Positions 1 through 23,836 of a stretch of DNA of 59,978 nucleotides are shown here, one piece after another (within the stretch, counting starts at the first letter, position 1; each line of letters starts with the position of its first letter). Location of the stretch: IMG/VR virus record IMGVR_UViG_3300036781_000826, positions 1 to 59,978 of that record. The stretch is one strand, 5' to 3'. Both the position numbers and the translations under genes were made by a program. The DNA comes from a virus (Duplodnaviria > Caudoviricetes). The notes under the pieces were generated by a model. It was not told the DNA's origin. It saw nothing but the letters and a program-made list of their open reading frames with translations, and did no database searches.

Positions 1-1179
1 TCAGCCTCGCCTTTTCCGATCCACCTTCCCAGCTTCGGGATTATTCTGGGACTGCTCGACATCTTCTAGCGCGGCCAGCACGTCGGCGTCCATGGCGTGA
101 ACGTAGCGGTTGGTCGACTTCGGATCGAGGTGGCCGAGCAGGCGCTGCGTCACCTTCATGTTGCCGGATCGGCGCTGGATCGTTGTCCCAGCGTGGTGGC
201 GGGCGCCATGGATCACGCGGCCCTGGCGGATACCGGCGCGCTTGGACGAGGTGCGCAGGCGCTGCTGCAGGCCATAGTAGGTCAGCGCCATGAGCTTGAT
301 CGCGTCTTCGCCGGTGGCCTCGTCCTTCACGATCTCCTCGACGTACCAGATGGTGTCCAGGTCCGCGGCGGAGGCCCGGCCGATCCTGGCCGCGATTTCG
401 CGCGCGTCGGCGGCGAGTAGCGGAACAGAATGCGGCACGTCGAACTTGCGGCCCTTGATCCACGACAGCCTGGCCGGGGCGCCATCGGCCTCAGGGGTGA
501 AGGCGTCCAGCGGGAAGAACAGCTCCCCGAACCGCAGGCCGTAGGTCAGCAGCAGGCGCAGGGCCAGCGCCGCGGTCGGCCCGTTCTCTCCGATCCATGC
601 CGCGCGCTCGTCGCTCGAATAGACCCGCACCGTCTCGCGCGGGGTGTCGAGCGTCAGGTCGGCCCATGCGATCGCCGGCAGGCCCTTGGCCTCCCAATGG
701 ATCGCCGCCCGCCGCAGGATCGGGCGCAGGGTCTGGATCACGTCGCGGTTCACCGTGGCGTTGGCGACGGCGTACTCTTTGGCCCGGACCATGGCGCCCC
801 GGCGGTCCTTGCGATCCTTGCCCTTCTTGAATGTCTGACCTCGGCGCTTCTGGATCGCCGTAGAGATGACCGCCGTCGTGATCTCGGCGAGCCGGATGTC
901 CTTCGGGAAGAGCTTCACCAGGCGCTTGACCCTGGTCAACTGTTGGTCGGCGTCGCCTCGGTGCTGGCCGTGCTCCTGCCAGTACTTGCCGGCCGCCAAG
1001 TCGAGCGTGAGCTGTGAGGCCTCGCCTAACTTCCCATCGGCCGCCGCGATGCGCTGCCGCTCTTCGAACCTCTCCGCTGCGCGTCGGGTCGTCTGTCCGG
1101 TAGAGCCAGTATGCCGGCGCCCCTGGATGACGAAGTCGAATTGAAAGAAGCGGCTCTTGGCCGGCTTGTAGACCGACAT
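1..1179 (-). CDS. int: Tyrosine recombinase (phage integrase)
   Basis: Catalytic motifs GLRFGE, HGARH, LLGH, NRY; N-terminal arm-binding-like segment. Confidence 0.93.
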   Translation of the reverse strand: MSVYKPAKSRFFQFDFVIQGRRHTGSTGQTTRRAAERFEERQRIAAADGKLGEASQLTLDLAAGKYWQEHGQHRGDADQQLTRVKRLVKLFPKDIRLAEITTAVISTAIQKRRGQTFKKGKDRKDRRGAMVRAKEYAVANATVNRDVIQTLRPILRRAAIHWEAKGLPAIAWADLTLDTPRETVRVYSSDERAAWIGENGPTAALALRLLLTYGLRFGELFFPLDAFTPEADGAPARLSWIKGRKFDVPHSVPLLAADAREIAARIGRASAADLDTIWYVEEIVKDEATGEDAIKLMALTYYGLQQRLRTSSKRAGIRQGRVIHGARHHAGTTIQRRSGNMKVTQRLLGHLDPKSTNRYVHAMDADVLAALEDVEQSQNNPEAGKVDRKRRG

Positions 1180-1433
1180 GGCTCGGCAGGCCCTTCGCTG
1201 AGATAGGCGCGGAGATCACGCTCTGTGTAGGCGTCGCGCCGGCCGCGCGGGACCGACCGGACGATCCCGTCGGCAGTCATCTCCCCAAGGGTCTTCACGT
1301 CAACCCCGATGAGCGCAGCGGCGTCTTTAGCTGTGGCTATCGCTGTGGACGAGAATACGGCATCGAACCGAGCTTCGGTGATCCGGCCCAGATCCGAGCT
1401 AACGGTGAAGTCGGTCGGCGCCTGGCGGGTCAT
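1026..1433 (-). CDS. Excisionase-like HTH protein, 3' end overlapping int
   Basis: AKDAAALIGVDVKTL...YTERDLRAYL MerR/Xis-type HTH directly upstream of int. Confidence 0.7.
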   Translation of the reverse strand: MTRQAPTDFTVSSDLGRITEARFDAVFSSTAIATAKDAAALIGVDVKTLGEMTADGIVRSVPRGRRDAYTERDLRAYLSEGPAEPCRSTSRPRAASFNSTSSSRGAGILALPDRRPDAQRRGSKSGSASRRPMGS

Positions 1434-2406: not shown

Positions 2407-2759
2407 GGGCGGTTGGCCAGTTCGAGCAGCACGTCGGCGTGGCAGCACCCGTCCGACGCGTAGTGCGAGATAGGGCACCAGCAGGCGAGGTTCTTGCCAC
2501 GAAGCTCGGCGCGCGCCGCAGCGACGAGCGCCTCATTGTCGGGGGCCACGGCGCGGTAAAGGACGAAGGCGTGACGCTTGTCCTGAACAGGACGGCCGCC
2601 GCTGTAGGCGGACGGCTTGCCGGGGATGAATGGGTTGCCCCACTTTCTGGTCCTGTCCACCTTTACGGTGTTGGGCGGCATCCTCCAACCCTTGGCCCGC
2701 GAGAGTTGAACACGGATCGGGTGCTCACCCATTCCCGCCTCCCTGTCCGAGAGCGGCAC
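2403..2759 (-). CDS. DUF4326-family protein (start may lie ~27 nt downstream)
   Basis: KWGNPF...LRGKNLACWC...CHADVLLELAN signature. Confidence 0.85.
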   Translation of the reverse strand: MPLSDREAGMGEHPIRVQLSRAKGWRMPPNTVKVDRTRKWGNPFIPGKPSAYSGGRPVQDKRHAFVLYRAVAPDNEALVAAARAELRGKNLACWCPISHYASDGCCHADVLLELANRP

Positions 2760-2988
2760 GGCCTAGGTTGGTGACCGAATATCCGAGCACGCCGGGCTGA
2801 CCTCCCCACTTGCCGGAATACTGGATCAGCCCCTTGAGAATGCAGGCTCGCGCTGTGCCGCCGTGAACTCCAGCGCCCCCTTCGATCCACCACGTCGGCG
2901 AGCCTTCATCGCCGTTGCGTAGGGCGTTCGGGGTGTCGCCCATACGCTCCAGCAGCGCGCGTTGCGCCTTGGTCAGCTTCTCACTCAT
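2725..2988 (-). CDS. Hypothetical winged-helix-like protein
   Basis: KLTKAQRALL...YSVTNLGRAAL pattern; translationally coupled. Confidence 0.6.
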   Translation of the reverse strand: MSEKLTKAQRALLERMGDTPNALRNGDEGSPTWWIEGGAGVHGGTARACILKGLIQYSGKWGGQPGVLGYSVTNLGRAALGQGGGNG

Positions 2989-3268
2989 CGCGCTCTCCCT
3001 TCAGCATGGCGTGGACGCGGGCGGCTTCGCGGAAGTGGTTGGTGAAAATGCCCTCGATGCGCGGCGACGGGTTGTCTGGGTTGGGGATGCCACACTCAAT
3101 GACCGGACCCGTGAAGCCTTCGATCCTGAACTTCGCAAACGGCTCTAGCGCCTTCTCGGCTGCGGCGAGTTTGGTCTCGGCAGAGGAGAGGGCCTCGGCG
3201 GCTTCATTGAAGATGTCAGCGTGATGCTGGCGACGCGCCTTGAGCCTCTCGATCAGTTTACTGTTCAT
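2981..3268 (-). CDS. Hypothetical phage protein
   Basis: Coupled ORF in leftward operon. Confidence 0.6.
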   Translation of the reverse strand: MNSKLIERLKARRQHHADIFNEAAEALSSAETKLAAAEKALEPFAKFRIEGFTGPVIECGIPNPDNPSPRIEGIFTNHFREAARVHAMLKGERDE

Positions 3269-3446
3269 CGGTCGGCTCCTTGGTGAGTGTAGAACGCTTT
3301 GCCCAGACGGCAGCGATGTACGCGGGTGTGTTTTGGGGAGTCGCCGTCAGGTGAAAGTCATGAACGCACGTCTCAACTTCACCCTCGAATTGCACCGCAG
3401 GATGGAGATGAGGATGGCTAGAGCCGCACTTGGGACAGCGTTTCAT
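3258..3446 (-). CDS. Small putative Zn-binding protein
   Basis: CPKC...HP...C..DFH; coupled ORF. Confidence 0.55.
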   Translation of the reverse strand: MKRCPKCGSSHPHLHPAVQFEGEVETCVHDFHLTATPQNTPAYIAAVWAKRSTLTKEPTDEQ

Positions 3447-4114
3447 GTCGGCTCCTTAGTGAGGGCGGCTCGGAGTTCGGAAATGACGCCTTCGAGGTCC
3501 CAGTTCATTCCGATAGCAATCAACAGGTTCTCGGAGAGGTTCTCCAGCACCTTCGCCCTGGCTTCGGCGGATCGCTTATCATCGTCCAAGGCCTCAATGA
3601 GCCCACGCCATGGCTGCGGAATGGCGGCCAGAATATAAGCGATGCGCTTCGGCCTTTCCTCCACCTCGGGCTTGGCGGGAGGGAGAAGGGCGATGAAGAA
3701 GTCCGCGTCCTGAAGTTCTTGCTCAGTCGCAGCCATCTGCGGGTCAAAAGCGGCGCCTCGGCCGGTGCGCTCGAAACGATGGCGACGAAGTTCCCGCGCA
3801 ATCGCCTCCCGATCCACCTCTACGGGTGGGCGTTGGGCGAGGGCGAGGAGGGTGTCGAATTGTTCCCAATTCAAGATGCACCCGTTGCGCGTGAAACCGA
3901 GGCCTACAAGCCGATTGACTTGTAGGAACTCCTCGAAAGCCTCCACAGCGGCTTTCAGTTCAGCGTCTTGGGTCATCTGGAATGTGCGTTTGCAGTGGAC
4001 ACACCGCCTCGTCGTGCCGGGCGCGTAAGAGCCGTCGGCCTGTTTCTCGTCGCAACGTGCGTGGCCGTGAGAGCCGCACGCGGGGCACTTCCATAGGGGG
4101 TCATACTGGGTCAT
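3443..4114 (-). CDS. Hypothetical protein with N-terminal Zn ribbon
   Basis: CPAC...CVHC; ATGA coupling. Confidence 0.6.
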   Translation of the reverse strand: MTQYDPLWKCPACGSHGHARCDEKQADGSYAPGTTRRCVHCKRTFQMTQDAELKAAVEAFEEFLQVNRLVGLGFTRNGCILNWEQFDTLLALAQRPPVEVDREAIARELRRHRFERTGRGAAFDPQMAATEQELQDADFFIALLPPAKPEVEERPKRIAYILAAIPQPWRGLIEALDDDKRSAEARAKVLENLSENLLIAIGMNWDLEGVISELRAALTKEPT

Positions 4115-4518
4115 GGGGCGGTCCCCTCAAGGGCTTGGCGGCAAGCGTCCCGTGCGCGGCAAAGCGTCCCGTGAACGTCTTTATCCACGACTTGATTGCT
4201 TTCGATGTGTCGCCTCGCGAGGTCGAAAGATTTCTGAGCTTGAATTAGCGCCGCCCTCAGCCGCTCCAACTCCCCCGCGATCTCCAGCATGGCGGGAGGG
4301 TCGAAGGTGGCGATGTGGAGGGCGTTTTCGTGAGACTGTCGGTCTCGGTCGGTCGAATGCTGCGGACACATCGTCCGGCAAATCCGATGCGGAAAGGGTC
4401 CGAAACGTGCCAAATCCCCCGCGGCAGAAACCCCTCCGTCGTATGCGCTTTCATATCGCCATTCCGCCTGCGTCGCCTTCCCAGCGACAGCGCGGATTTG
4501 TTCGGGGGTGAGGGTCAT
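4111..4518 (-). CDS. Ead/Ea22-like protein
   Basis: A.KATQAEW...NALHIATFDPPAMLEI..ELERLR; GGAG RBS before ATG 4518. Confidence 0.6.
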   Translation of the reverse strand: MTLTPEQIRAVAGKATQAEWRYESAYDGGVSAAGDLARFGPFPHRICRTMCPQHSTDRDRQSHENALHIATFDPPAMLEIAGELERLRAALIQAQKSFDLARRHIESNQVVDKDVHGTLCRARDACRQALEGTAP

Positions 4519-5851: not shown

Positions 5852-6171
5852 TTTGCGCTCCAGTCAGGGCAAATCGCGTCGAGCTGCGTGATCTGGTAGC
5901 CGTGGAAATCCGAGCCGAGGTCGCAGGCCCAGCGGCGCGCCTGGTCTTTCGGCCAGGGCGTCGAGGTGCGGTTGGAGCAGTTCGCGCACGAGGCACCAGT
6001 GGCGCGCAGTTCGTCGATCTTGACCTTCGCCACCGCTCGATGTCGGAGGCCGGCGCGCATCTTGCCGCCGCGCTTGCCGGTGATGGTGAGGGCGCGCGCC
6101 CATTCGGAGGGAAATAGCTGTGCGGCGAGGGCGCGTTGCGCCTCAAGCTCGGCGGTCGTTGGCTCGGTCAT
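5848..6171 (-). CDS. Hypothetical Cys-rich protein
   Basis: CANC...C...C; coupled ORF. Confidence 0.55.
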   Translation of the reverse strand: MTEPTTAELEAQRALAAQLFPSEWARALTITGKRGGKMRAGLRHRAVAKVKIDELRATGASCANCSNRTSTPWPKDQARRWACDLGSDFHGYQITQLDAICPDWSAK

Positions 6172-7220
6172 GCCCGCACCTCGGGCATCGCGTCGTGGAG
6201 CACGCCGTCCAGCAGGCGCCCGGCGGCCTTCTTGCCGACCAACTGCATCGGCCAGCCGTCGTCGCGGCGCTCGCCGTCTATCGCGAGCCGGAGGTGGCCG
6301 GGCGCGTTCGTCGGCCAGTGACCGCCGTCGTTGGACGGGCAGGCCGCCCAAGCACCCCACTGCTTGAAGAAGAACGCGACATCGGTCGCGGCGCAGGCGT
6401 CGCGGGTCCACGACACCCAGCGCGGGTGCATCGGGCGGGCACCTGGGCCACTTTCCCCGCCCATGATGATCTGGTTCAGGTGGGCGTGCGGTGCGGTGGC
6501 CGAGTGAACGCCTTCGGGCGCGTCGTGGTATTTCAGCCCGGCCAGAGCGTCGACGAAGTAGTGGCCGTTGCAGATCGACCGGAAGTCGACCCACTCAAGC
6601 GCGGGCTCGTAGCTGACGAAGCGGATCACCGTCGGACTGTCGAGCAGGTCCAGAACGCGCAGGGCGGTGCGCTCGTCCTCGACGGAGACGCCCAGCCAGA
6701 CGTTCGGCAGGGGCCACGCGCTGATGCTCGTTCCCTTGCCTGGCTGCAGGATGATGGGATTGGTCAACAGGCGACCTATGGGTGCCGCCTGCATCATCTC
6801 GGTGGCAATGCGCGACTGGACGTCCGGCGCGGTGAGGTAGGCCCGCATCCTAGCGGAGCGCTTCGTCAGCACCTGGTAGGTGTGCTGCCCGGCGATGGCC
6901 ATCCGAGCGAATACCTTGTCGATCCAGGCGTCCGGCACGCTCTCGTGGAACAGGTCGCCATGCGCGCAGACGAAGATCCTGCGCCGGCGGCGCCAGCTCA
7001 GCGGCTGGTCAATCCATCCTTCGTTCAGCCGGACCTGGCCGTTCCACGCGGGGCCGGCCTTGGTGTCGATCGTCAGGCCCTGCCGCGACGCCGTGTACTT
7101 CAGCCGCGTGCCGGCGAGCTTCATGGCGTAGCAGTTGGTGCAGCCGGGCGAGACGACGGAGCACCCGGTGATCGGGTTCCACGTCGCGTCGGTCCATTCG
7201 ATGTGCGAGCCGTCAGCCAT
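6168..7220 (-). CDS. DUF5131 / phage Gp37-Gp68 family protein
   Basis: IEWTDATWNPITGC..VSPGCTNCYA; GGESG; FFFKQWG. Confidence 0.93.
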   Translation of the reverse strand: MADGSHIEWTDATWNPITGCSVVSPGCTNCYAMKLAGTRLKYTASRQGLTIDTKAGPAWNGQVRLNEGWIDQPLSWRRRRRIFVCAHGDLFHESVPDAWIDKVFARMAIAGQHTYQVLTKRSARMRAYLTAPDVQSRIATEMMQAAPIGRLLTNPIILQPGKGTSISAWPLPNVWLGVSVEDERTALRVLDLLDSPTVIRFVSYEPALEWVDFRSICNGHYFVDALAGLKYHDAPEGVHSATAPHAHLNQIIMGGESGPGARPMHPRWVSWTRDACAATDVAFFFKQWGAWAACPSNDGGHWPTNAPGHLRLAIDGERRDDGWPMQLVGKKAAGRLLDGVLHDAMPEVRA

Positions 7221-7362
7221 AGACCTCGTCCATGGGCGCGGCGTCGAGGCTGTGCACGGCGAGGTACATCGTCGCCGCGTCGGTGAGCTCGAAGCACGGC
7301 TCGACCTCGATCAGGTCGCCCGGCTCGGCCACGCGCTCGGTGAGGGTCAGGACGTCATCCAT
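7213..7362 (-). CDS. Small acidic protein (49 aa, MDDVLTLTER...), not in ORF track
   Basis: Fills gap between coupled genes; GGAGG upstream. Confidence 0.5.
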   Translation of the reverse strand: MDDVLTLTERVAEPGDLIEVEPCFELTDAATMYLAVHSLDAAPMDEVYG

Positions 7363-7663
7363 TAACGGCCTCCGGTTGAATGAAGATGCGGACGGTGGGC
7401 GAGCCGCCGGCTTTCACTGGCTGGCCGGCGTCGAGTAGCCGCAACGCTTCACGGCCGGCGGCCAAGATCCGGTAGACACGCGTCTCGGTGTCGATCAGGC
7501 CGTCCGCGGCCATCGCCCGAGTGATGAACCTGAGCTTTTTGCGCTTCAGGTCCGAGAGGTGCGCGCACGTCACGGACTGCAGGTGCTCGAACGAGGCGGT
7601 GCCCTGGGCCAGGCGCCGCAGCACCGCGTGACAGCGCCCGTTCGGGGAGTAGTGGCCGTTCAT
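7355..7663 (-). CDS. Hypothetical winged-helix-like protein
   Basis: VLRRL...GLI...YRILAAGREAL; coupled. Confidence 0.55.
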   Translation of the reverse strand: MNGHYSPNGRCHAVLRRLAQGTASFEHLQSVTCAHLSDLKRKKLRFITRAMAADGLIDTETRVYRILAAGREALRLLDAGQPVKAGGSPTVRIFIQPEAVNG

Positions 7664-7908
7664 AGGAGATGCCCCTGCTCGACCAGGCTCTGCACCCTCA
7701 GGCCACAGCGCCCCTTCTTGCGGTAGGCCACCAGCCAGAGGTCCAATTCCTCGACGGAGATCGTCCACCGCTTCAGCGCATCACCCATGGTGATCTCGCC
7801 GGCATGGATGCGGCGCAGGACCTCCTCCTTGCGGGCAGGCGTCCACCTATCTACCGGGCCTTCGCCTGGAAGCTGGTCGCTAGGGGTGCGGAGGTGAGAC
7901 GGCATCAC
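7660..7908 (-). CDS. SciP-like (DUF1153) CtrA-inhibitor homolog
   Basis: RWTPARKEEVL..I..G.IT..DA.KRW.ISVEEL..W...Y...G..GLRV matches the DUF1153/SciP pattern. Confidence 0.8.
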   Translation of the reverse strand: MMPSHLRTPSDQLPGEGPVDRWTPARKEEVLRRIHAGEITMGDALKRWTISVEELDLWLVAYRKKGRCGLRVQSLVEQGHLL

Positions 7909-8972
7909 TCGCCGCGCGCCTCCGCTTCCGCGAGTTCGGCGCGGCGGTCGTCGAAGATCTGATCGAGCTCGACCTTCCGTTCGGGGTAGCCGGCGTCCAG
8001 GTCCTTCAGGAGTTGCTCGGCGGCGCGGCCGAAAGCATCGATCTTGATAGTGCTGGGCGCCTCGCGCAGGCGCTTCTCGTAGGCGTCGGCGCGCTGAGCA
8101 AGGGTGAGCTCGGCAGTGCGCGGCGCAGCCCCGCGATCACCAGGGAAGTCGCTGCCCGGCCCACTGGTCGGGGCATGGCTGCCCTTTGCCCAGGTGGCCA
8201 GCGCCGAGCCCATCTGCTCGTCTAGCGGGCGCGGGTTCTCCATGAGGCCACGAAACTGCTCCGGCAGCTTCATCATCATCCGCTCGCCGCGGTTCTCGGA
8301 TTTCCAGGTCGGCAGGCCGCCGGCGCCCGGCAACAGCAGGGCGTTCATGGTCATCTCGTAGACGAACTCATCGCCGGCGATCGGCATGAAGCCCATCGGC
8401 TCGATAACGGTCTTGTCGCGCCCATTGTCCTGCTGCTTCTTGACCGGCTTCGACGTCTCCTTGGCGCGGAAGCAGAAGATGAAGTTGGCGTTGAGCTGAA
8501 GCAGGCCGTTGATCAGCCGCCGGCGGGCCGCCTTGGGCTTTTGCCAAGCCAGCATGTTGAAGCGGTCGGCCTTCCAGGTGCCATAGTCATCTCCGGCGAG
8601 CCGCCGCATCTCCTGGTCCTGGAGGTCGATCAGGCCGCCGGGCCCCTCGTGCTCGTGGCTCATGCTGTCGACGATCACCACGCCGGCGCCCTGCTTCACG
8701 CAGAAGCGTAGAGCTTCGAGGTAATCGTCGGAGCCGAAGGGCGCCTCGAAGGGCACGTGCTTGAACTTGAAGCGGTCGGCGTAGTGCAGGCCGCGTCGCG
8801 CCTCGGTGTCGATCATGTAGATGTCGCCCCCGGCCACCTGCTGGATCCCGGTGGCCAGGCGCAGGGCGGAGAAGGTCTTGCCGCCGCCGGAGGGGCCCAT
8901 GAGGCCGACAAGCAGCGGGACTTGCTCCCGAACAGCCAGGGCGGCGGTGAAGTTGCGGGCTGGCGCGTTCAT
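7905..8972 (-). CDS. AAA ATPase, Sak4-like recombination protein
   Basis: Walker A GPSGGGKT, IDTE, VIVDSMSHE; next to exonuclease. Confidence 0.8.
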   Translation of the reverse strand: MNAPARNFTAALAVREQVPLLVGLMGPSGGGKTFSALRLATGIQQVAGGDIYMIDTEARRGLHYADRFKFKHVPFEAPFGSDDYLEALRFCVKQGAGVVIVDSMSHEHEGPGGLIDLQDQEMRRLAGDDYGTWKADRFNMLAWQKPKAARRRLINGLLQLNANFIFCFRAKETSKPVKKQQDNGRDKTVIEPMGFMPIAGDEFVYEMTMNALLLPGAGGLPTWKSENRGERMMMKLPEQFRGLMENPRPLDEQMGSALATWAKGSHAPTSGPGSDFPGDRGAAPRTAELTLAQRADAYEKRLREAPSTIKIDAFGRAAEQLLKDLDAGYPERKVELDQIFDDRRAELAEAEARGE

Positions 8973-9901
8973 GCCATCTCCATTGCGTTGAGGGTTTCGT
9001 CGACCTCGGCGCGGCGCGCCCACTGGTCGAGCAGCCAGGTCGGCGGTGTGGCGAGGTGCGGTCCGAGCGGATAGCCGGGCCACTCGCCAGTCGTCAGCGC
9101 GCGGTCCCACAGGTTGCAGGCCGCATCGACCTGCTCTTCGCCCCAACTGCGCCCGGCCTCGTCGGTCTCGACCAAGCAAAGCGTGAAGGGCGGATGCTGC
9201 TCCTGGTAGAGAAAGCAGAACCGCCGACGCCCGCGGCCGTCGGGGTCTAGGATGTCCAGGCCCCGGCGGTAGAACGCCTCTTGGAAATAGTGCTCGGCGC
9301 TGAAGACGCGGGCCTTGGCCATCGCAGGCGACACGTCGAGCTCGGTCGTCTTGTAGTCGATGATGACCTGCGCATCGGCACGCATGCGGTCGATTAGCGC
9401 GCGACGCCAGAAGCCCGTGCCCTCCTGCCAAGTGATCATCGCCTCGGCGACCGCGGAGCCGTCCAGCAAGCCGGTGATGACGGGACCCGCAACGGCGGCC
9501 ATGGCCTTGGCTCGGCGGTGTTCCTTCGGCAGCAGCGGGATCTCGCCGGCCTTGCGCGCCGCCTTCCGCGCTTCCTGCGCGTCTTTTTTCTTCCAGTCGG
9601 GTGCGTGGATCAGCGCGATCTCGGCGCCGACGCCAAACGAGAGCGCGTGTGCCGCCGAACCGATATCCATGGCGCGGGTAATCGTCTGCTCGCTAGCTTC
9701 CTCCTCGTCGCTGTCGTCCCAAGGCTCAGCGAGGCGCGGGTGGGCCGTCTTCGCGTGGGCCAGAGAGCGGAACAGCGCCAGGCGGGCAGTGCTGGAATTG
9801 AGCGAAGGCGCAGGGCACGGATCCGCGCGGTAGGTCTCCATGTCGACGCCGAGGTAGAGGCCTGGGCTGTCGATGGCGCCTGTCCAGAGCTGGGCCTTCA
9901 T
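8969..9901 (-). CDS. RecE/exonuclease VIII-like PD-(D/E)XK nuclease
   Basis: SLNSS..R; GSAAH; RALID...IIDYKTT; Y..Q..FY. Confidence 0.85.
   Translation of the reverse strand: MKAQLWTGAIDSPGLYLGVDMETYRADPCPAPSLNSSTARLALFRSLAHAKTAHPRLAEPWDDSDEEEASEQTITRAMDIGSAAHALSFGVGAEIALIHAPDWKKKDAQEARKAARKAGEIPLLPKEHRRAKAMAAVAGPVITGLLDGSAVAEAMITWQEGTGFWRRALIDRMRADAQVIIDYKTTELDVSPAMAKARVFSAEHYFQEAFYRRGLDILDPDGRGRRRFCFLYQEQHPPFTLCLVETDEAGRSWGEEQVDAACNLWDRALTTGEWPGYPLGPHLATPPTWLLDQWARRAEVDETLNAMEMA

Positions 9902-11273: not shown

Positions 11274-11277
<4 letters not shown>
11077..11277 (-). CDS. Small hypothetical protein
   Basis: Coupled at both ends. Confidence 0.5.
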
Positions 11278-12130
<853 letters not shown>

Positions 12131-12131
<1 letters not shown>

Positions 12132-13124: not shown

Positions 13125-13832
13125 TTAGAACTCAGGGTCGTATGCGCCGACGACCAGGCCCACGATCCGCGCCTCGACGCCCTCTTCGCCGGCGCGCGCG
13201 CCCTTGGTCATATCCACCGGCTCAGACCATCGCGGGTCGCTGGACCGCGGCCAAAGGCGCACCAGATCGACCGGAACGCCCGGGATGGTCTCAACCTGCT
13301 TAATTGTTCGCTCCCTGATAGCGCCCTGATCGCGAAGCCTTTCCACAACGACCCAGTCACCGCTCCTGGGCGAGTAGCCCATCTCCATGGCGTCTACGAC
13401 GTGCGCGTAGTGACCAGCTGGGATCTTCAAGTTGACCGAGTCGCCCTCGACGCGCTCGAGCCATTGGGGCCACTCGGCGTACTTCGGGTGCGGGAGCACG
13501 GGATAGGCGAAATCAGCGGGGGGCTCCTCAAACTCGACTTCGCGCCACAGGCCCGCCTGGACGCGATACCGGACCCGTAGAATGTCGGGGACGATTCGCG
13601 GGTCCAGGCGCTGCGCACCGATCGGCGTGTTGTGGGTGAAGTCCTGCACCGCGCATCCGATCTCCTCAGCGATGGCGAGCAGGGTGTTGAACTCTGGCCG
13701 CTTGCTCTTGCCGCTAAGGATGTCCTTCACGGCCGTCTCGCCCAGCCCTGCCTTGCGCGAAACGTCGCGCGCCGTGCGCTTCTTCTCGCTGAGAACTGTT
13801 CTCAGCCGCTCCTGATCGACCCCCACTGCCAT
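13125..13832 (-). CDS. cI: CI-like repressor (HTH + S24 peptidase)
   Basis: XRE HTH (RDVSRKAGLGETAVKDIL); VEGDSVN and RTIK Ser/Lys dyad; divergent from cro. Confidence 0.88.
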   Translation of the reverse strand: MAVGVDQERLRTVLSEKKRTARDVSRKAGLGETAVKDILSGKSKRPEFNTLLAIAEEIGCAVQDFTHNTPIGAQRLDPRIVPDILRVRYRVQAGLWREVEFEEPPADFAYPVLPHPKYAEWPQWLERVEGDSVNLKIPAGHYAHVVDAMEMGYSPRSGDWVVVERLRDQGAIRERTIKQVETIPGVPVDLVRLWPRSSDPRWSEPVDMTKGARAGEEGVEARIVGLVVGAYDPEF

Positions 13833-13868
13833 GGTCTGAAATATCGCTCGAAGGCGCCGCTTTTCAGA

Positions 13869-13914
13869 GGTGGATATATCCCCCGTTGACGGCGGGGGAC
13901 TTGTCCCCCATTGT
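13869..13914 (+). promoter_or_regulatory. PR-like promoter (TTGACG-17bp-CATTGT) with two operators
   Basis: GGTGGATATATCCCCC at 13869-13884 and GGGGGACTTGTCCCCC at 13894-13909. Confidence 0.85.
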
Positions 13915-13920
13915 TGCGCC

Positions 13921-14145
13921 ATGCCCATCTCAGATTTCATCGGCGCCTGCGACGCCTACTGCGAAGCCTCCGGCTTCTCGCGCGTGTGGTTGTCCAAGCG
14001 CCTCTTCGCTGACACCTATCGCCTGGACGACTTGGCGGCCGGCAAGACGGACATTGGCGTCAAGCGACTTGAACGGGCTAGCAACGAGCTCGCCGCCCTC
14101 GACGCGGCCAGGACATCCGAAGGCGCTCAAGGCGCCGCCGCCTGA
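13921..14145 (+). CDS. Cro-like regulator, probably leaderless
   Basis: Small HTH-like ORF divergent from cI; ATG 6 nt after -10 box. Confidence 0.75.
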   Translation: MPISDFIGACDAYCEASGFSRVWLSKRLFADTYRLDDLAAGKTDIGVKRLERASNELAALDAARTSEGAQGAAA

Positions 14146-17189: not shown

Positions 17190-17485
17190 TCGGCCTCACC
17201 CCGATGCAGGCTAAGGCGCTGAAGGCTGTGGCTCACCTGACGAGCGAGTTGGGCGTCGCGCCGAGCTATAGCGAACTCTGTCAGGAGCTCGGCCTGGTCA
17301 GCAAAGGCGGCGTGATGCGCCTGCTCTATGCTCTGCGCGAGCGCGGCGCCGTGGAGTTTATCCCGCAAAAGGCTCGTTCCGTCCGGATCATCGCCGACAT
17401 GCCGGGGCTGGAGACGCGAAGCACGACCGACCTTCAGGCCCTGCGCCGCGAGATTGATCGCATCCTCAGGTCGAGGGCGAGCTGA
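17186..17485 (+). CDS. LexA DNA-binding-domain-only protein
   Basis: LTP.Q...PSYSEL...LGL.SKGGV.RL...L.ERG. Confidence 0.85.
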   Translation: MIGLTPMQAKALKAVAHLTSELGVAPSYSELCQELGLVSKGGVMRLLYALRERGAVEFIPQKARSVRIIADMPGLETRSTTDLQALRREIDRILRSRAS

Positions 17486-18060
17486 TGGCCCGGGGCGACG
17501 TCGATTGGAACAAGGAAAACCTCGATCGCCTGAAGTCTGGCGTGGAGGCGGGCGACAGCTATTCGCAAATCGCCGACCGCATCCCGGGATGCACCAGATC
17601 CGGCGCCATCGGAAAGGCGAGGCGCATGGGCTATTCGCAGCCAGCCGCAGCCTCGAAGCCGTCTAGGATGCTTCGCGCACCTGCGGTCGCGCGGGCGCCC
17701 AGCCAGAACGCGGGCTTGGCGTTCAAGACACGCTCGTTCGGCGGTTCGGCGATCTACAAGGGTGAGCCCACTACGAGCCCGCTTAAAAAGCGGCTCGATG
17801 TGGCGATGGCCAATGCCGCCTGCGAGCCGCTCCCTACGCCCGATGGGGAACTTGCCCCGACCTGCACCCTCGTCCAGCTCGGCGCCCACATGTGCAAGTG
17901 GCCAATCGGCGATCCGATGGTCGAGGGCTTCGGCTTCTGCGGCCGGATCACTGGAGACCTTTACTGCGATACTCACCTGGAGCGCGCCTGGTCGCCGGTC
18001 CCGAAGAACCGCCCGAGGACGGGCAACGAACTCGCCAGGAGCTTGCGCCGGTATGTTTGA
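17485..18060 (+). CDS. GcrA-like cell-cycle regulator
   Basis: W....L.RLK...G.S.SQIA..I.G.TRS..IGK.RR.G and L..L..HMCKWPIGDP...F.FCG...YC..H. Confidence 0.88.
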   Translation: MARGDVDWNKENLDRLKSGVEAGDSYSQIADRIPGCTRSGAIGKARRMGYSQPAAASKPSRMLRAPAVARAPSQNAGLAFKTRSFGGSAIYKGEPTTSPLKKRLDVAMANAACEPLPTPDGELAPTCTLVQLGAHMCKWPIGDPMVEGFGFCGRITGDLYCDTHLERAWSPVPKNRPRTGNELARSLRRYV

Positions 18061-18451
18061 CTGGCCCTGCAAACCCCTGATGGCCGACGACCTCGTCGCC
18101 ATCGATGCGACGCGCTGGCGGGTTTTCCCGCGCGCTACCGTCGTGGCGATCGCCGAGGCGTGGAACGCCGGCCTCAACACAGCGACGATGGCCGCTGATC
18201 TGGAATGCCGTCCGGGCTCGATCCGGGTGCTCATCGGCAAGTTGACCCAGGTCGGCGTCGCCCTTCGAACCGCTGTGGACCCTTCGACTGTCGCGACCAG
18301 GGAAATCGCGCGGAAGAGGTCGCCCGCGGCGGAGGCGATGGCCCAGGAGCAGTTCGCGCGCCTGCGTCGTGTCGCCGCCTGGGATCCTGCCGCGCGGCGC
18401 GCCCTGGAACTCTACGAGCGTGGCCGCAAGGCGCCGGCGGTCACGCCATGA
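18053..18451 (+). CDS. Hypothetical HTH-like protein
   Basis: Coupled ORF. Confidence 0.55.
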   Translation: MFDWPCKPLMADDLVAIDATRWRVFPRATVVAIAEAWNAGLNTATMAADLECRPGSIRVLIGKLTQVGVALRTAVDPSTVATREIARKRSPAAEAMAQEQFARLRRVAAWDPAARRALELYERGRKAPAVTP

Positions 18452-18744
18452 AGGCCGACTATTCCGTGAGCGTCCCGATGGCCAGCGCGCGCACTGCTCG
18501 CGCCGGGCTGATGGAGGCGCGGGCCAAGGTCGCCTTCTGGGACGTGCCGGTCGAGATGGCGCTCGCGTGCTCGTCGTCGGCGTTCAAGTCGGTGATCTGG
18601 GCGCGCTACGGCCAGGGCGAACATCCCGCGCCGAACGCGCGGGTGATCGTCAGCGGCAGCCGCTTCTTCGCGACGATCTCCTTTCCCGGTCATCACGACA
18701 TGCACCTGCCGCTCGACTGCTGGACGATGGAGAATGGGCGGTGA
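18448..18744 (+). CDS. Hypothetical protein
   Basis: Coupled ORF. Confidence 0.55.
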   Translation: MKADYSVSVPMASARTARAGLMEARAKVAFWDVPVEMALACSSSAFKSVIWARYGQGEHPAPNARVIVSGSRFFATISFPGHHDMHLPLDCWTMENGR

Positions 18745-21257
18745 GCGGCGCCTATCAGTCCTTCCTTGAGCAGAAGGCGATCGCCGCGCCGTCGACGGGC
18801 TTTCACGTCGAGCAGGACGACCTGCATCCATGGCTCAAGCCGCACTGCCGGGCCATCGTGCAATGGGGCTTGGCCGGCGGCTCGCGCGCCTATTTCACGG
18901 CCTATGGACTGCACAAGACCTCGATGCAACTGGAGAGCCTGCGTCAGATCGTGAAGCGTGAGGGGGGCCCGGCGCTGCAGGTCGCGCCGCTCGGGGTTCG
19001 CCAGGAATTCATCGACGAAGCCGTCAACCTGCAGATGGACCTGCCGTTCATCCGTTCAGAGGCAGAAATCCGCGACAACCAGGTGAACCTGGTCAACTAC
19101 GAGACGATCCGCGACGGCAAGATCGACCCGGCGCTGTTCACTGCCGCCAGCCTGGATGAGGCGGACGTTCTTCGCTCCTACGGGTCGAAGACCTTCCAGG
19201 AGTTCCTGCCCGCCTTTGAGCCTGTCAGGTTCAAGTTTGTCGCGACGGCGACGCCTTCGCCGAACCGCTTCAAGGAACTGATCCACTACGCCGGATTCCT
19301 GGGGGTCTGCGACACTGGCCATGCCCTGACGAGGTTCTTCCAGCGCAACAGCGAAAAGGCCAACGACCTCACGCTCTACCCCCACAAGGAGGACGAGTTC
19401 TGGTTGTGGGTTTCGACCTGGGCCATCTTCCTTCAGAAGCCTAGCGACCTCGGCTTCAGCGACGTCGGCTACGAACTGCCTGAGCTCGAAGTCCGCTGGC
19501 ACGAAGTCCAGGCCAATATCGGCGACGCCGGCGCGGACAGTCGCGGCCAGATGAAGCTGATGCGCGACGCTGCAGTCGGCCTTCAGGATGCGGCCCGCGA
19601 GAAGCGCGACACGCTTCCGGTGCGGATCGCCAAGCTGAAGGAGCTGCGGGAAGCGGAGCCCGAGAACCACTTCATCCTCTGGCACGACCTGGAGGATGAG
19701 CGCCGTGCGATCGAGCAGGCGTTGCCGACCGTCCAGTCGGTCTATGGGACCCAGGACCTGAACGAACGTGAGGCCGTCGTCCGCGGCTTCAAGAACGGAA
19801 CGGTCACTGACCTAGCCGCCAAGCCCGTGATGCTGGGCGCCGGCGGCAACCTCCAGCGGCACTGCCACCGCGCGATCTTCGCCGGCATCGGCCACAAGTT
19901 CCGCGACATCGCCCAGGCTTGGCACCGCATCCAGCGGTTCGGCCAGACGGAGAAGGTGGTGATCGACATGATCTACGCCGAGACCGAGCGGGAGGTCCGG
20001 CGGAGCTTCGAAGCTAAATGGGCGCGCGACACCGAGTTGCGCGCCCGCATGACCGAGATCATCCGCAAATACGGCCTCGGCCGGCTGGCACCAGAAGAGG
20101 CGATGCGCCGAAGCATCGGCGTCAAGCGCCAGATCCAAAGCGGTGAGGCGTGGACCGCCGTCCTGAACGACAGCGTGGCCGAGTGCGCGAGCCTGCCGAG
20201 CGACCATTTCGGGCTCATCGTCACCTCCGTCCCTTTCGGAACGCAGTACGAGTACTGCGAGAGCTACAACGATTTCGGCCACAACGAGGACAACGCGGCC
20301 TTCTTCCTACAGATGGACTTCCTGACGCCGGAGCTGCTCAGGATCCTGCGGCCCGGCCGGGTCCTGGCCGTCCACGTCAAGGACCGCATTCTGTTCGGCA
20401 ACGTGACGGGGCTAGGCTTCCCGACCGTCGAGCCCTTCCACGCCGACTGCATCGCCCACTACCGGCGCCATGGCTTCCACCTCATGGCCGTCCGCCCGGT
20501 GGAGACGGACGTCGTCCGCGAGAACAACCAGACCTACCGCCTCGGCTATTCCGAGATGCGCAAGGACGCGACGAAGATGGGGTCCGGCTCGCCGGAATAC
20601 ATCCTGTTCTTCCGCAAAGCCCAGACCGATCTCTCGCGCGGCTACGCGGACGATCCGGTGACCAAGCGGCTGGACGATTACAGCCTCGCGCGCTGGCAGA
20701 TCGATGCGGCGGCCTACTGGCGCTCCGGCGGCGACCGATACATGACCGCCGACGAGCTGGCGGCCCTTCCGCCGAAGATGCTCCAGCGCGCGTTCCGAGA
20801 GCAGTCGGGGAGGGTCGTCTACGATCACGACGACCATGTCCGCCTGGCGGAGGCCCTGGCCAAGCGAGGCGCGCTTCCCAAGACCTTCGCCGCGCTGGCG
20901 CTGGAATCGCCCACCGGCGTGGTGTGGACTGACATCCTGCGCATGGCGACCCTGAACGCCGACCAGTCTATGGGCGGCCGGGAAAAGCACGTCTGCCCGC
21001 TGCAGATCGACATCGTCGACCGCATCATCCGCTTCTGTTCCGACCGCGGCGACCTCGTGTTCGACCCCTTCGCCGGCTTGGGAACGGTTCCCGTCCGGGC
21101 CGTGACCCTCGGGCGCCGCGGCTATGGATCTGAGCTCAACGAGCAGTACTTCCGCGACAGCCTACGCTACCTGATGGCGGCGGAGTTCGAAGCCCGTCAG
21201 CCGACGCTCTTCGACATCCTGGACGCCGGCCGCAACATCGACGCGGAGGCAGCATGA
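18741..21257 (+). CDS. SF2-helicase-like / N4-N6 DNA methyltransferase fusion
   Basis: YGLHKT, LDEA, TATP, RIQRFGQ; then TSVPF, HVCPLQ, DPFAGLGT. Confidence 0.88.
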   Translation: MSGAYQSFLEQKAIAAPSTGFHVEQDDLHPWLKPHCRAIVQWGLAGGSRAYFTAYGLHKTSMQLESLRQIVKREGGPALQVAPLGVRQEFIDEAVNLQMDLPFIRSEAEIRDNQVNLVNYETIRDGKIDPALFTAASLDEADVLRSYGSKTFQEFLPAFEPVRFKFVATATPSPNRFKELIHYAGFLGVCDTGHALTRFFQRNSEKANDLTLYPHKEDEFWLWVSTWAIFLQKPSDLGFSDVGYELPELEVRWHEVQANIGDAGADSRGQMKLMRDAAVGLQDAAREKRDTLPVRIAKLKELREAEPENHFILWHDLEDERRAIEQALPTVQSVYGTQDLNEREAVVRGFKNGTVTDLAAKPVMLGAGGNLQRHCHRAIFAGIGHKFRDIAQAWHRIQRFGQTEKVVIDMIYAETEREVRRSFEAKWARDTELRARMTEIIRKYGLGRLAPEEAMRRSIGVKRQIQSGEAWTAVLNDSVAECASLPSDHFGLIVTSVPFGTQYEYCESYNDFGHNEDNAAFFLQMDFLTPELLRILRPGRVLAVHVKDRILFGNVTGLGFPTVEPFHADCIAHYRRHGFHLMAVRPVETDVVRENNQTYRLGYSEMRKDATKMGSGSPEYILFFRKAQTDLSRGYADDPVTKRLDDYSLARWQIDAAAYWRSGGDRYMTADELAALPPKMLQRAFREQSGRVVYDHDDHVRLAEALAKRGALPKTFAALALESPTGVVWTDILRMATLNADQSMGGREKHVCPLQIDIVDRIIRFCSDRGDLVFDPFAGLGTVPVRAVTLGRRGYGSELNEQYFRDSLRYLMAAEFEARQPTLFDILDAGRNIDAEAA

Positions 21258-23836
21258 ACCTCGCGCTGCACCCTAACCACCCCGATGCCCAGGTAGAGCA
21301 CCTGCCGGCAAATATTGATGCCGAGCAGGCGCTGCTGGGCGCGCTGCTCTACGACAACGCGGCCTACGAGCGTATCGGCGACCACCTGCGGCCGACCCAC
21401 TTCTACGATCCGTTCCACCAGCGCCTGTTCGCAGCAATCGAGACCGACCTGCGGAAGGGCCAACTCGCCGAGCCAATCCTCATCAGCGAGCGCTTCCATG
21501 CCGACGAAGGCTTCGAGCAACTCGGGGGCGTGCGCTACCTCGCCGACCTGGTCGATCGCGCCCCGCCGGCCGCCAATGCAGCGCAATATGCCCGCGCGGT
21601 GTACGACCTGGCCATTCGGCGGGATCTGATCAGGCTCTCCGGCGAGATCGCACTCCGTGCCCGCGCCGGCGGCGATGACGAGCTCGACGGACGCGCCCAG
21701 GTCGAAGCCGCGGAGGCTGACCTCTTCCGCATGGTGCAGACCGAAGGCGCCGGCCAGGGCTTCCAGACCTTCGAGCATTACCTCACCGGCGCCGTGCAGA
21801 TGGCTGCGGAGGCCTATAGCCGCGACGGCGGCCTTTCCGGGCTCTCCACCGGCCTGCTCGACCTCGATCAGAAGCTCGGGGGCTTGCACGCCTCGGACCT
21901 GATCATCATCGCCGCCAGGCCCTCCATGGGGAAAGCCCAGCCGCTCGACGCTGGCGTCTTGCTCGCCGATGGCCGGTTCATGGCGATGGGCAGCCTGCGC
22001 ATGGGCGACCAACTGGCGTCCGTGGATGGGGAACCTTCGACCGTCACAGGCGTGCACCCCCAGGGCGAGAAGGAAATCTTCCGGGTCACGCTCTCCGATG
22101 GCCGCTCGGCGGAAGCCTGCGCCGATCACCTGTGGCGCGTCTGCTACCGCGGCTGGCCGGAGCCCCGCATCCTGAAGACGTCCGAGATCGCCGACATGCT
22201 GGAGCGCTCGCGGTATCGCGACCGGCTCTGGATCGACAGCCACAGCGGGGACTTCGGTGACCGCGCAGGCTTGCGTCTGGACCCCTACGTGCTTGGCGCA
22301 CTGATCGGAGACGGCAAGCTCAGCGATAGGACTCCGGTCATCACCTCGATCGATCCCGAAGTGATCACCGAGATGAACCGCAGGCTGGCACCCGACATGG
22401 AGGCCGGCCGAGCCTGGAACGACATCACCTTCCGCGTCCGTACCATCGGCGGCGGCAACCGCGTCGGCGTGCAGGGAATGGTCCCCAACCGGGTCACGGC
22501 GGCACTTGAGGCCATGGGCCTGCACGGCTGCCGCAGCGAGGACAAGTTCATCCCGCCCGAATACCTGAGCGCCTGCCGCGCCGCACGCCTGGCGCTTCTG
22601 CGCGGGCTTCTCGACACTGACGGCTGGGTTGAGACCTTCGGCGCCGTGCGGTTCTGCACGACGAGCCCTCGCCTCGCGCGAGATGTCGTTGACCTCGTCC
22701 GGTCGCTCGGCGGCCGGGCCGGTGTCGGCAAGAGGGCACCGTTCTACCGAAAGGACGGCGAGTGCCGCGAAGGGCTGCCAGCGTTCACCCTGAACATCCA
22801 AGGTCTCGCCGGCGATGACCTCTTCATGATCCGTCGCAAGGCCATCCGCGTCGCGCCCCCGAAGCGGGTCAAGCGCCTCACGATCGCCGCGGTGACCTAC
22901 GGCCGCAAGGCCCAGGCTCAGTGCATCACTGTCAGCCACCCGAGCCGCCTCTACATCACCGACGACTACGTCGTGACCCACAACTCCGCGCTGGCCTGCA
23001 ACATCGCCTTCGACGTCGCCAAGCACTACGTCTGGGAACCCCAGCCAGACGGATCGAGGAAGACGGTACGGGGTGGGGTGGTGGCCTTCTTCAGCCTGGA
23101 GATGGGCGGCGAGCAGTTGGCGATGCGCCTGCTGGCCGAGGTCTCCGGCGTGTCGAGCGATCGCCTCCGCAAAGGCGACATCAATCCCCAAGAATTCGGC
23201 CGGATCCGCGACGCGGCAACGGAGATCCAGAACGCGCCGCTGCACATCGACGCCACCGGCGGACTGGCGCTCTCCAAGCTGTGCACCCGGGCCCGCCGGC
23301 TGAAGCGAACGGTTGGCCTCGACCTTGTCGTGGTGGACTACCTGCAGCTCATCGACAGCGGCATCGGCGGCAGGGACAACCGGGTCCAGCAAGTCAGCCT
23401 CATCACCTCCACGCTCAAAGCGCTCGCCAAGGAGTTGGCGATCCCGGTGATTGCGCTGGCCCAGCTCTCCCGCAACGTCGAAAGCCGCGACGACAAGAAG
23501 CCCCAGCTCTCCGACCTGCGGGAATCCGGCTCCATCGAGCAGGATGCCGACGTGGTGATGTTCATCTACCGCGAGGCCTACTACCTGAGCCGCACCGAAC
23601 CGCGCGAGGGCACCGACGAGCACCTGAAGTGGCGCGAGGAGATGGACCAAGTCAGCGGGCTCGCCGACATCATCATCGGCAAGCAGCGGCACGGCCCGAT
23701 CGGGAACATCAAGGTCTCGTACAACGAGGACCTGACGAAGTTCGGCAACCTGGTGCGCGACGCCGGGCGCTACGAGGCGCACCGGCAACGCCTCGACTTC
23801 GACCAGCCTCGATATGCGCCGGGGGTGGAAGACTGA
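21254..23836 (+). CDS. dnaB: Replicative DNA helicase DnaB with intein
   Basis: AEQALLG; ARPSMGK|S; FSLEM; VVDYLQL; LSDLRESGSIEQDAD; KQRHGP. Confidence 0.96.
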   Translation: MNLALHPNHPDAQVEHLPANIDAEQALLGALLYDNAAYERIGDHLRPTHFYDPFHQRLFAAIETDLRKGQLAEPILISERFHADEGFEQLGGVRYLADLVDRAPPAANAAQYARAVYDLAIRRDLIRLSGEIALRARAGGDDELDGRAQVEAAEADLFRMVQTEGAGQGFQTFEHYLTGAVQMAAEAYSRDGGLSGLSTGLLDLDQKLGGLHASDLIIIAARPSMGKAQPLDAGVLLADGRFMAMGSLRMGDQLASVDGEPSTVTGVHPQGEKEIFRVTLSDGRSAEACADHLWRVCYRGWPEPRILKTSEIADMLERSRYRDRLWIDSHSGDFGDRAGLRLDPYVLGALIGDGKLSDRTPVITSIDPEVITEMNRRLAPDMEAGRAWNDITFRVRTIGGGNRVGVQGMVPNRVTAALEAMGLHGCRSEDKFIPPEYLSACRAARLALLRGLLDTDGWVETFGAVRFCTTSPRLARDVVDLVRSLGGRAGVGKRAPFYRKDGECREGLPAFTLNIQGLAGDDLFMIRRKAIRVAPPKRVKRLTIAAVTYGRKAQAQCITVSHPSRLYITDDYVVTHNSALACNIAFDVAKHYVWEPQPDGSRKTVRGGVVAFFSLEMGGEQLAMRLLAEVSGVSSDRLRKGDINPQEFGRIRDAATEIQNAPLHIDATGGLALSKLCTRARRLKRTVGLDLVVVDYLQLIDSGIGGRDNRVQQVSLITSTLKALAKELAIPVIALAQLSRNVESRDDKKPQLSDLRESGSIEQDADVVMFIYREAYYLSRTEPREGTDEHLKWREEMDQVSGLADIIIGKQRHGPIGNIKVSYNEDLTKFGNLVRDAGRYEAHRQRLDFDQPRYAPGVED
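21935..22984 (+). mobile_element. Class 3 intein (Ala1, 350 aa) with LAGLIDADG endonuclease
   Basis: Starts AQPLD after P-loop GK, ends VVTHN/S; LGALIGDG and LRGLLDTDG; W-C-T triplet. Confidence 0.92.

Follow-up and report, generated by a model that had tools for sequence, protein, structure and literature searches.

A short open reading frame (ORF) on the minus strand of a temperate siphovirus-type prophage, at positions 7660 to 7908 of the DNA analyzed, is a real gene, and it encodes a member of the DUF1153 family, to which the CtrA inhibitor SciP belongs. Judged by its sequence, the phage protein is a diverged relative of SciP and not a SciP orthologue, as its model score, its missing N-terminal arm, and its place in a clade apart from SciP all indicate; the gene itself is accessory cargo of an early operon. 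As to function, we favor a role as an early, host-directed, SciP-like damper of CtrA-activated promoters, a reading to which our analysis assigns a probability of about 0.4. In the following, "the window" denotes the whole stretch of DNA that was analyzed, an IMG/VR provirus record of 59,978 bases with a GC content of approximately 67% and an estimated completeness of about 72%.

The gene can be read as an 82-aa protein starting from a GTG at position 7908 or as an 81-aa protein starting from an ATG at position 7905. A preliminary description of this DNA had pointed to an 82-aa ORF with the residue pattern RW..RK..V..I..G.I..A..RW.ISVEE..W..G..GLRV, and exactly this ORF with this pattern was recovered. 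Its GC content is 0.81 at third and 0.46 at second codon positions, as in other genes of the window, and six close homologues with 63 to 73% identity were found, self not counted. Within the protein, a short N-terminal region (7849 to 7905, minus strand) carries the clade motif LPGEGPVD in place of the longer arm of SciP. It is followed by a helical HTH core (R20 to V71 in the numbering of the 81-aa form; 7693 to 7848, minus strand), which was delimited by an AlphaFold2 model and by family-invariant residues, and by a C-terminal tail with the sequence V-E-Q-G-H-L-L (7663 to 7683, minus strand), which is predicted to be disordered and represents the clade motif QG(R/K/H)LL-COOH.

The gene directly upstream encodes an AAA_24/Sak4-like RecA-type recombination ATPase (7905 to 8972, minus strand), and its stop codon (TGA, 7907 to 7905) falls inside the GTGATG with which the DUF1153 gene begins. 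The stop codon of the DUF1153 gene (TGA, 7662 to 7660) in turn overlaps the ATG (7663 to 7661) of a downstream 102-aa ORF that has no family match (7355 to 7663, minus strand). An ATGA overlap also joins the AAA_24 gene to the gene of a PDDEXK exonuclease (DUF3799, phrog_412 "exonuclease VIII"; 8969 to 9901, minus strand), and no terminator-like sites were found on the minus strand from 7355 to 8969. These stop/start overlaps bear out the earlier proposal that the gene is coupled within a "PL operon," a designation that is a fitting analogy, since the leftward arm is headed by a CI-type repressor gene (HTH_26; 13125 to 13940, minus strand), upstream of the DUF1153 gene and in the same orientation, and tightly packed leftward genes extend as far as an Xis-like ORF and the gene of the integrase. 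A scan for sigma-70-like promoters between 4500 and 15600 returned no sites, a scan of this kind being uninformative for such a host type. Further down the operon, a DUF5131 (phage Gp37/Gp68-type) gene is located at 6168 to 7220 (minus strand), and the leftward arm ends with an Xis/AlpA-like HTH ORF (1026 to 1433, minus strand) beside a complete tyrosine integrase gene (1 to 1179, minus strand). The end of the Xis-like ORF overlaps the start of the annotated integrase ORF, and the true start of the integrase may lie further in. Toward the same end of the arm, the stretch from 2700 to 4150 shows a lower GC content (0.63 versus 0.67 to 0.69) and contains small Cys-rich, zinc-ribbon-like ORFs (3258 to 3446 and 3443 to 4114). 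Elsewhere in the arm, a 285-aa early protein without family match (11274 to 12131, minus strand) features a long run of irregular D-A-Y-A repeats near its C terminus.

The rightward arm contains terminase, portal, protease, capsid, tape measure, and endolysin genes. It also carries a full-length gene for a GcrA-like cell-cycle regulator (17485 to 18060, plus strand; PF07750, 94.6 bits versus a cut-off of 26.9) and, just downstream, a gene for a helicase fused to an N6/N4 DNA methyltransferase (18369 to 21257, plus strand). Another gene of this arm encodes an 860-aa DnaB-type helicase (21254 to 23836, plus strand), in which DnaB_C matches in two stretches around a LAGLIDADG_3 match and which probably carries an intein. 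When PF07750 was run against 14 control genomes, Caulobacter and, unexpectedly for a family considered to be alphaproteobacterial, Sulfolobus acidocaldarius gave matches above the cut-off. The large terminase is closest to those of phages of Sinorhizobium, Erythrobacter, Paracoccus, and Rhizobium, with 40 to 48% identity. Host genes are absent from the record, which holds phage genes only; because of the terminase kinship and the match of the GcrA family to Caulobacter among the control genomes, the host is most likely an alphaproteobacterium. Among the sequencing runs listed for this DNA, one is a DNA run of a soil metagenome, which may be its source, and none is an RNA run.

Comparison of the protein with the DUF1153 profile (PF06627) gave a match of 46.3 bits (gathering cut-off, 23.5; E value, 4.9e-12), in which residues 18 to 74 align with profile positions 26 to 82 of 87. 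Over 141 sequences, R20, W21, K26, E53, W57, G65, G68, and L69 show a conservation of at least 90% or are invariant, and the phage protein has all of them. Among the NCBIfam models, the best one for the phage protein is that of SciP (NF051866, an equivalog model). The score of 48.9 bits (48.3 bits in a six-frame search) is nevertheless below the curated cut-off of 100, and the match covers only model positions 23 to 85 of 90, the N-terminal arm (positions 1 to 22) being missing. Consistently, the RW is preceded by approximately 20 residues in the phage protein, compared to approximately 30 in SciP-like proteins (median of 31 for representatives above the cut-off). The preliminary description had called the protein a "SciP-like CtrA inhibitor"; what holds of this designation is that it is a phage-borne member of the family of SciP, whereas orthology to SciP is contradicted by the score. 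Among proteins of solved structure, a sequence search (phmmer) recovered only 2oa4 and 2jrt as relatives, both of them DUF1153 proteins that stem from structural-genomics projects (E value of about 2e-5). To our knowledge, DUF1153 beyond SciP is a large family without known function, and the SciP-like reading consequently rests on one characterized member.

The distance from SciP proper was assessed with a homologue set of 360 cluster representatives at an E value of ≤1e-3, 150 of which were listed. At least seven long proteins among the 150 matches listed were set aside as spurious; matched stretches were inspected for four of the seven, and P0008 and P0021 were FN3-like repeats. The cut-off of NF051866 was passed by 8 of the 150 short representatives scanned, namely, by six single-domain proteins and by two tandem DUF1153 duplications (P0015 and P0031), and no sequence of the 15-member clade to which the phage protein belongs reached even an E value of 1e-20 with the SciP model. 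In a quick maximum-likelihood tree (IQ-TREE, 143 rows), this clade forms one side of a branch (SH-aLRT of 90) inside a group of 102 rows. The six single-domain proteins that pass the SciP cut-off all fall in a separate 33-row group (SH-aLRT of 80), as do 24 of the 35 proteins scoring 75 to 100 bits. Support for both groupings is weak. The 15 sequences of the window's clade share LPGEGPVDRWTPARK at the start, and the clade is marked by LPGEGPVDRWT near the start and by the C-terminal QG(R/K/H)LL tail. Thirty SciP-like representatives have 26 columns with a conservation of at least 70%, and in 20 of these, the phage protein is identical to the SciP-group consensus. The six departures are A27E, A32R, V33I, Y47W, L49I, and a C-terminal R-to-G change, of which A27E, A32R, and the R-to-G change are nonconservative; furthermore, the net charge of the core is +5 in the phage protein versus +2 in SciP-like proteins.

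SciP is described as a protein of 93 residues that binds CtrA directly and hinders the recruitment of RNA polymerase at CtrA-activated promoters; it may touch DNA as well, and sciP on a multicopy plasmid abolishes motility, which is counteracted by ctrA(T170A) (PMC4083442). The phage protein has in common with SciP of Caulobacter crescentus and its orthologues the DUF1153 domain, the helical HTH core, a small size, a basic character, and the signature LP..RW..RK..G..A..R..EE..W..A..G..GL, whereas it differs in the absence of the N-terminal arm, in its own LPGEGPVD motif and QG(R/K/H)LL tail, and in its separate clade. The genetic settings differ as well. While sciP is a chromosomal gene under CtrA control with a CtrA box upstream, the phage gene is part of a translationally coupled early operon, and a search of the window for the CtrA box TTAA-N7-TTAA gave no site, not even when one mismatch was tolerated (about 0.6 sites expected by chance). 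The reported SciP word TGTCGCG was found 26 times in the window, compared to 22.5 ± 5.3 expected occurrences, and is not enriched.

The clade with the tail is rare. A tblastn search of 50,697 phage records yielded no matches at an E value of ≤1e-3; seven records that appeared at an E value of ≤10 all had E values of ≥0.5 and were treated as noise. No relatives of the phage protein were found in GTDB species genomes or in viral contigs searched with the single protein, no family for it exists in PHROGs, and none of 29 candidates proved to be a fused or longer form. Three distant DUF1153 loci came from a viral collection and 11 loci from a metagenome collection, one of the latter (L005) being a locus that encodes a full clade member with 58% identity in which the tail is present. 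The gene order in L005 is Erf, YqaJ, a 169-aa gene, the DUF1153 gene, and DUF1643. Both clade members with known context follow recombination genes, the modules concerned being nonhomologous (Sak4-like plus PDDEXK in the window and Erf plus YqaJ in L005). The early operon of locus L003 is syntenic and includes a tail-less DUF1153 gene of 71 aa, which is, however, located upstream of the exonuclease gene. Comparison of the 102-aa protein encoded downstream in the window with the small genes beside DUF1153 in L003 and L005 gave nonsignificant E values of 0.79 and 18, respectively, and no conserved partner was found. Other phage DUF1153 genes are located among XRE regulator genes (L002 and L007) or beside a serine recombinase gene (L004). 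In the latter locus, a provirus, a short gene resembling the N-terminal part of GcrA, the serine recombinase gene, and the DUF1153 gene of 96 aa lie within approximately 2.2 kb (6007 to 8243).

For a view of the operon across relatives, eight related phages were gathered via the AAA_24 protein (55 to 83% identity). The exonuclease/AAA_24 pair is kept in all nine related loci, i.e., in the eight relatives and L003. The DUF1153 gene is found in none of the eight, either at the locus or in the whole records, including five with a completeness of 90% or more. The gene is accessory cargo of the early operon, and because none of the eight relatives carries it, it stands outside the recombination machinery and is no core phage regulator. 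An accessory pattern of presence and absence is typical of host-directed early phage genes.

In the reading that we favor, a small basic HTH protein would be made early after induction or infection, its translation being coupled to that of the recombination genes of the phage, and its target would most likely be the host, not the phage. At promoters activated by CtrA, it would bind to CtrA or take a place next to it and damp activation as SciP does; the promoters hit would be those of ccrM, of the division genes, and of the flagellum and pili. In combination with the GcrA-like regulator and the methyltransferase of the phage, it would hold the host in a nondividing, replication-competent state. 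The contact with CtrA, the effect on CtrA-dependent promoters, and a role of the tail are what we infer. Silencing of phage receptors and action as a dominant-negative SciP, both of which had been raised for the phage gene in the preliminary description, are offered purely as conjecture. The SciP-like role is favored by the DUF1153 match, a SciP-like fold, the agreement in the 26 conserved columns, the accessory early status, the cell-cycle gene context, and the architecture of the homologue P0142. It is disfavored by the missing arm, the separate clade, the nonconservative changes, the more basic core, the absence of a CtrA box, and the chance-level frequency of TGTCGCG. In P0142 (185 aa), a CtrA/OmpR-type winged-helix DNA-binding domain is fused directly to an arm-less DUF1153 domain, which suggests that the arm is dispensable for working beside a CtrA-type domain.

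The cell-cycle context concerns both DNA words and other genes of the phage. GANTC, the CcrM/GcrA word in Alphaproteobacteria, is strongly avoided in the window, with 56 sites versus about 281 expected (ratio of 0.20), while the ratio is 0.55 to 0.95 for seven further N-containing palindromic pentamers with matching composition. GcrA-like matches were present in all three other viral records that carry a DUF1153 gene, where two exceeded the cut-off and the third had 23.5 bits and a stop inside, and in three of the eight related records without a DUF1153 gene. If the window is included, GcrA and DUF1153 co-occur in four of four records compared to three of eight (p of about 0.07), and since the records are few and nonindependent, this is a hint only. 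Caulobacter phage phiCbK carries a GcrA homologue (Gill et al. 2012, cited in PMC9437464 and PMC7987155), and alphaproteobacterial phages are described as reading the host cell cycle via CtrA boxes and as carrying GcrA copies (PMC9437464, PMC7987155). The prophage of the window resembles phiCbK in that a phage owns a copy of a host cell-cycle regulator, as it has a GcrA-like gene too. GcrA, however, belongs to a protein family other than DUF1153, and the function of phage GcrA is only speculated on in the relevant passages of these papers (PMC9437464, PMC7987155). In the literature searched, neither a phage-encoded SciP nor a phage-made CtrA antagonist is described. In position and logic, the phage gene is reminiscent of lambda kil and Rac kilR, small accessory genes of leftward early operons beside recombination genes whose products block host division via FtsZ. 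This likeness does not extend to sequence or fold, and the target of Kil and KilR is FtsZ, not a transcription factor.

The predicted fold bears on a second reading, which is the main rival and somewhat less likely than the favored one: the protein could be a CtrA-independent, sequence-specific HTH regulator that binds phage or host promoters directly and, as a small early factor, represses or activates them. The AlphaFold2 model, calculated from the 141-sequence alignment, has a mean pLDDT of 75.4 and comprises helices at residues 23 to 35, 40 to 46, 51 to 64, and 66 to 71, preceded by an N terminus in coil conformation. In a structure search of the Atlas, the cluster labeled "CtrA inhibitor SciP family" ranked first with a TM score of 0.78. 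The top match of Foldseek in the PDB was 2jrt (probability of 0.90, E value of 0.4), with no PDB match at an E value of ≤0.001 and nothing meaningful in BFVD. Matches to HTH_28, HTH_Tnp_1, and paired domains appeared in Foldseek and the Atlas too, and such a transposase-type or paired-type HTH fold would suit a direct DNA binder, as would the very basic core. Likewise, HTH_17 (PF12728) gives scores of 14.8, 17.9, and 26.3 bits within the clade, all below the gathering cut-off of 27, the lowest being that of the window protein. The location of other phage DUF1153 genes near XRE or serine recombinase genes and the reported DNA binding of SciP itself (PMC4083442) point in the same direction. Against a CtrA-independent regulator stand the family-invariant residues held in common with SciP and the absence of the gene from all eight relatives, in which a core phage regulator should persist. 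The accessory status, however, speaks only against the version with a core phage regulator; a DNA binder aimed at the host would be compatible with it.

The tail invites an explanation of its own. The motif P-x-Q-G-(R/K/H)-L-L is located at the very C terminus in 14 of the 15 clade members, although the linkers in front of it differ in length, and among the 150 short representatives, an ending of the form [GE]xLL is confined to these 15. Among the stop-to-stop frames of at least 40 aa in the window, the DUF1153 ORF is the only one with such an ending, apart from one overlapping noncoding frame. For residues 78 to 81, pLDDT values are below 50, and this part is predicted to be disordered. The protein could therefore be an adaptor or inhibitor whose disordered QG(R/K/H)LL tail docks on a host hub such as the beta sliding clamp, or the tail could be a degron by which the protein is kept short-lived. 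The position shortly after recombination genes at both clade loci with known context would fit such an activity, which we nevertheless consider unlikely. Beta-clamp-binding motifs at C termini follow the consensus Q-x-x-[LM]-[LF], and QGHLL-COOH fits this loose pattern, but the Gly at position 2 and the basic residue at position 3 are atypical for clamp motifs. The recombination genes, moreover, work without the DUF1153 gene in all eight relatives. In addition, the conservation of the tail may be partly at the nucleotide level, because the Q-G-(R/H) codons double as an SD-like purine run before the overlapping next start at both loci for which DNA is available (AGGGG in the window; in L005, GGGAGG ahead of a TTG). 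The invariant Leu-Leu of the tail is unexplained by this constraint. Overall, the tail may serve for docking to a partner or as a signal for degradation, which would be compatible with either main reading.

An excisionase-like function as a recombination directionality factor, to which the weak HTH_17 similarity and the adjoining serine recombinase gene in L004 might point, is highly improbable, because a typical Xis-like HTH ORF (1026 to 1433) sits beside the integrase gene, from which the DUF1153 gene is separated by 6.5 kb, and the HTH_17 score is below the cut-off.

Returning to the favored role as a damper of CtrA-activated promoters, a more specific form of it can be proposed, which we regard as doubtful. 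Here, a rare clade of arm-less SciP paralogues with a docking or degron tail would have supplied the phage with an anti-CtrA factor that is expressed early from the recombination operon and forms a cell-cycle lock with the GcrA-like regulator and the GANTC-related methyltransferase. CtrA-activated motility, pilus, and division genes would then be switched off during lytic growth, and the factor, if this were true, would be the transcription-factor-targeting counterpart of lambda Kil.

The consequences for the family depend on whether the phage protein binds CtrA. If it does not, most DUF1153 proteins, including those of phages, would not be SciP, and automatic labels of the type "CtrA inhibitor SciP family" would need caution. 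If it does, the protein would be a compact natural tool for switching off CtrA-activated genes and would represent a second, independent case of a phage taking over the alphaproteobacterial cell-cycle circuit.
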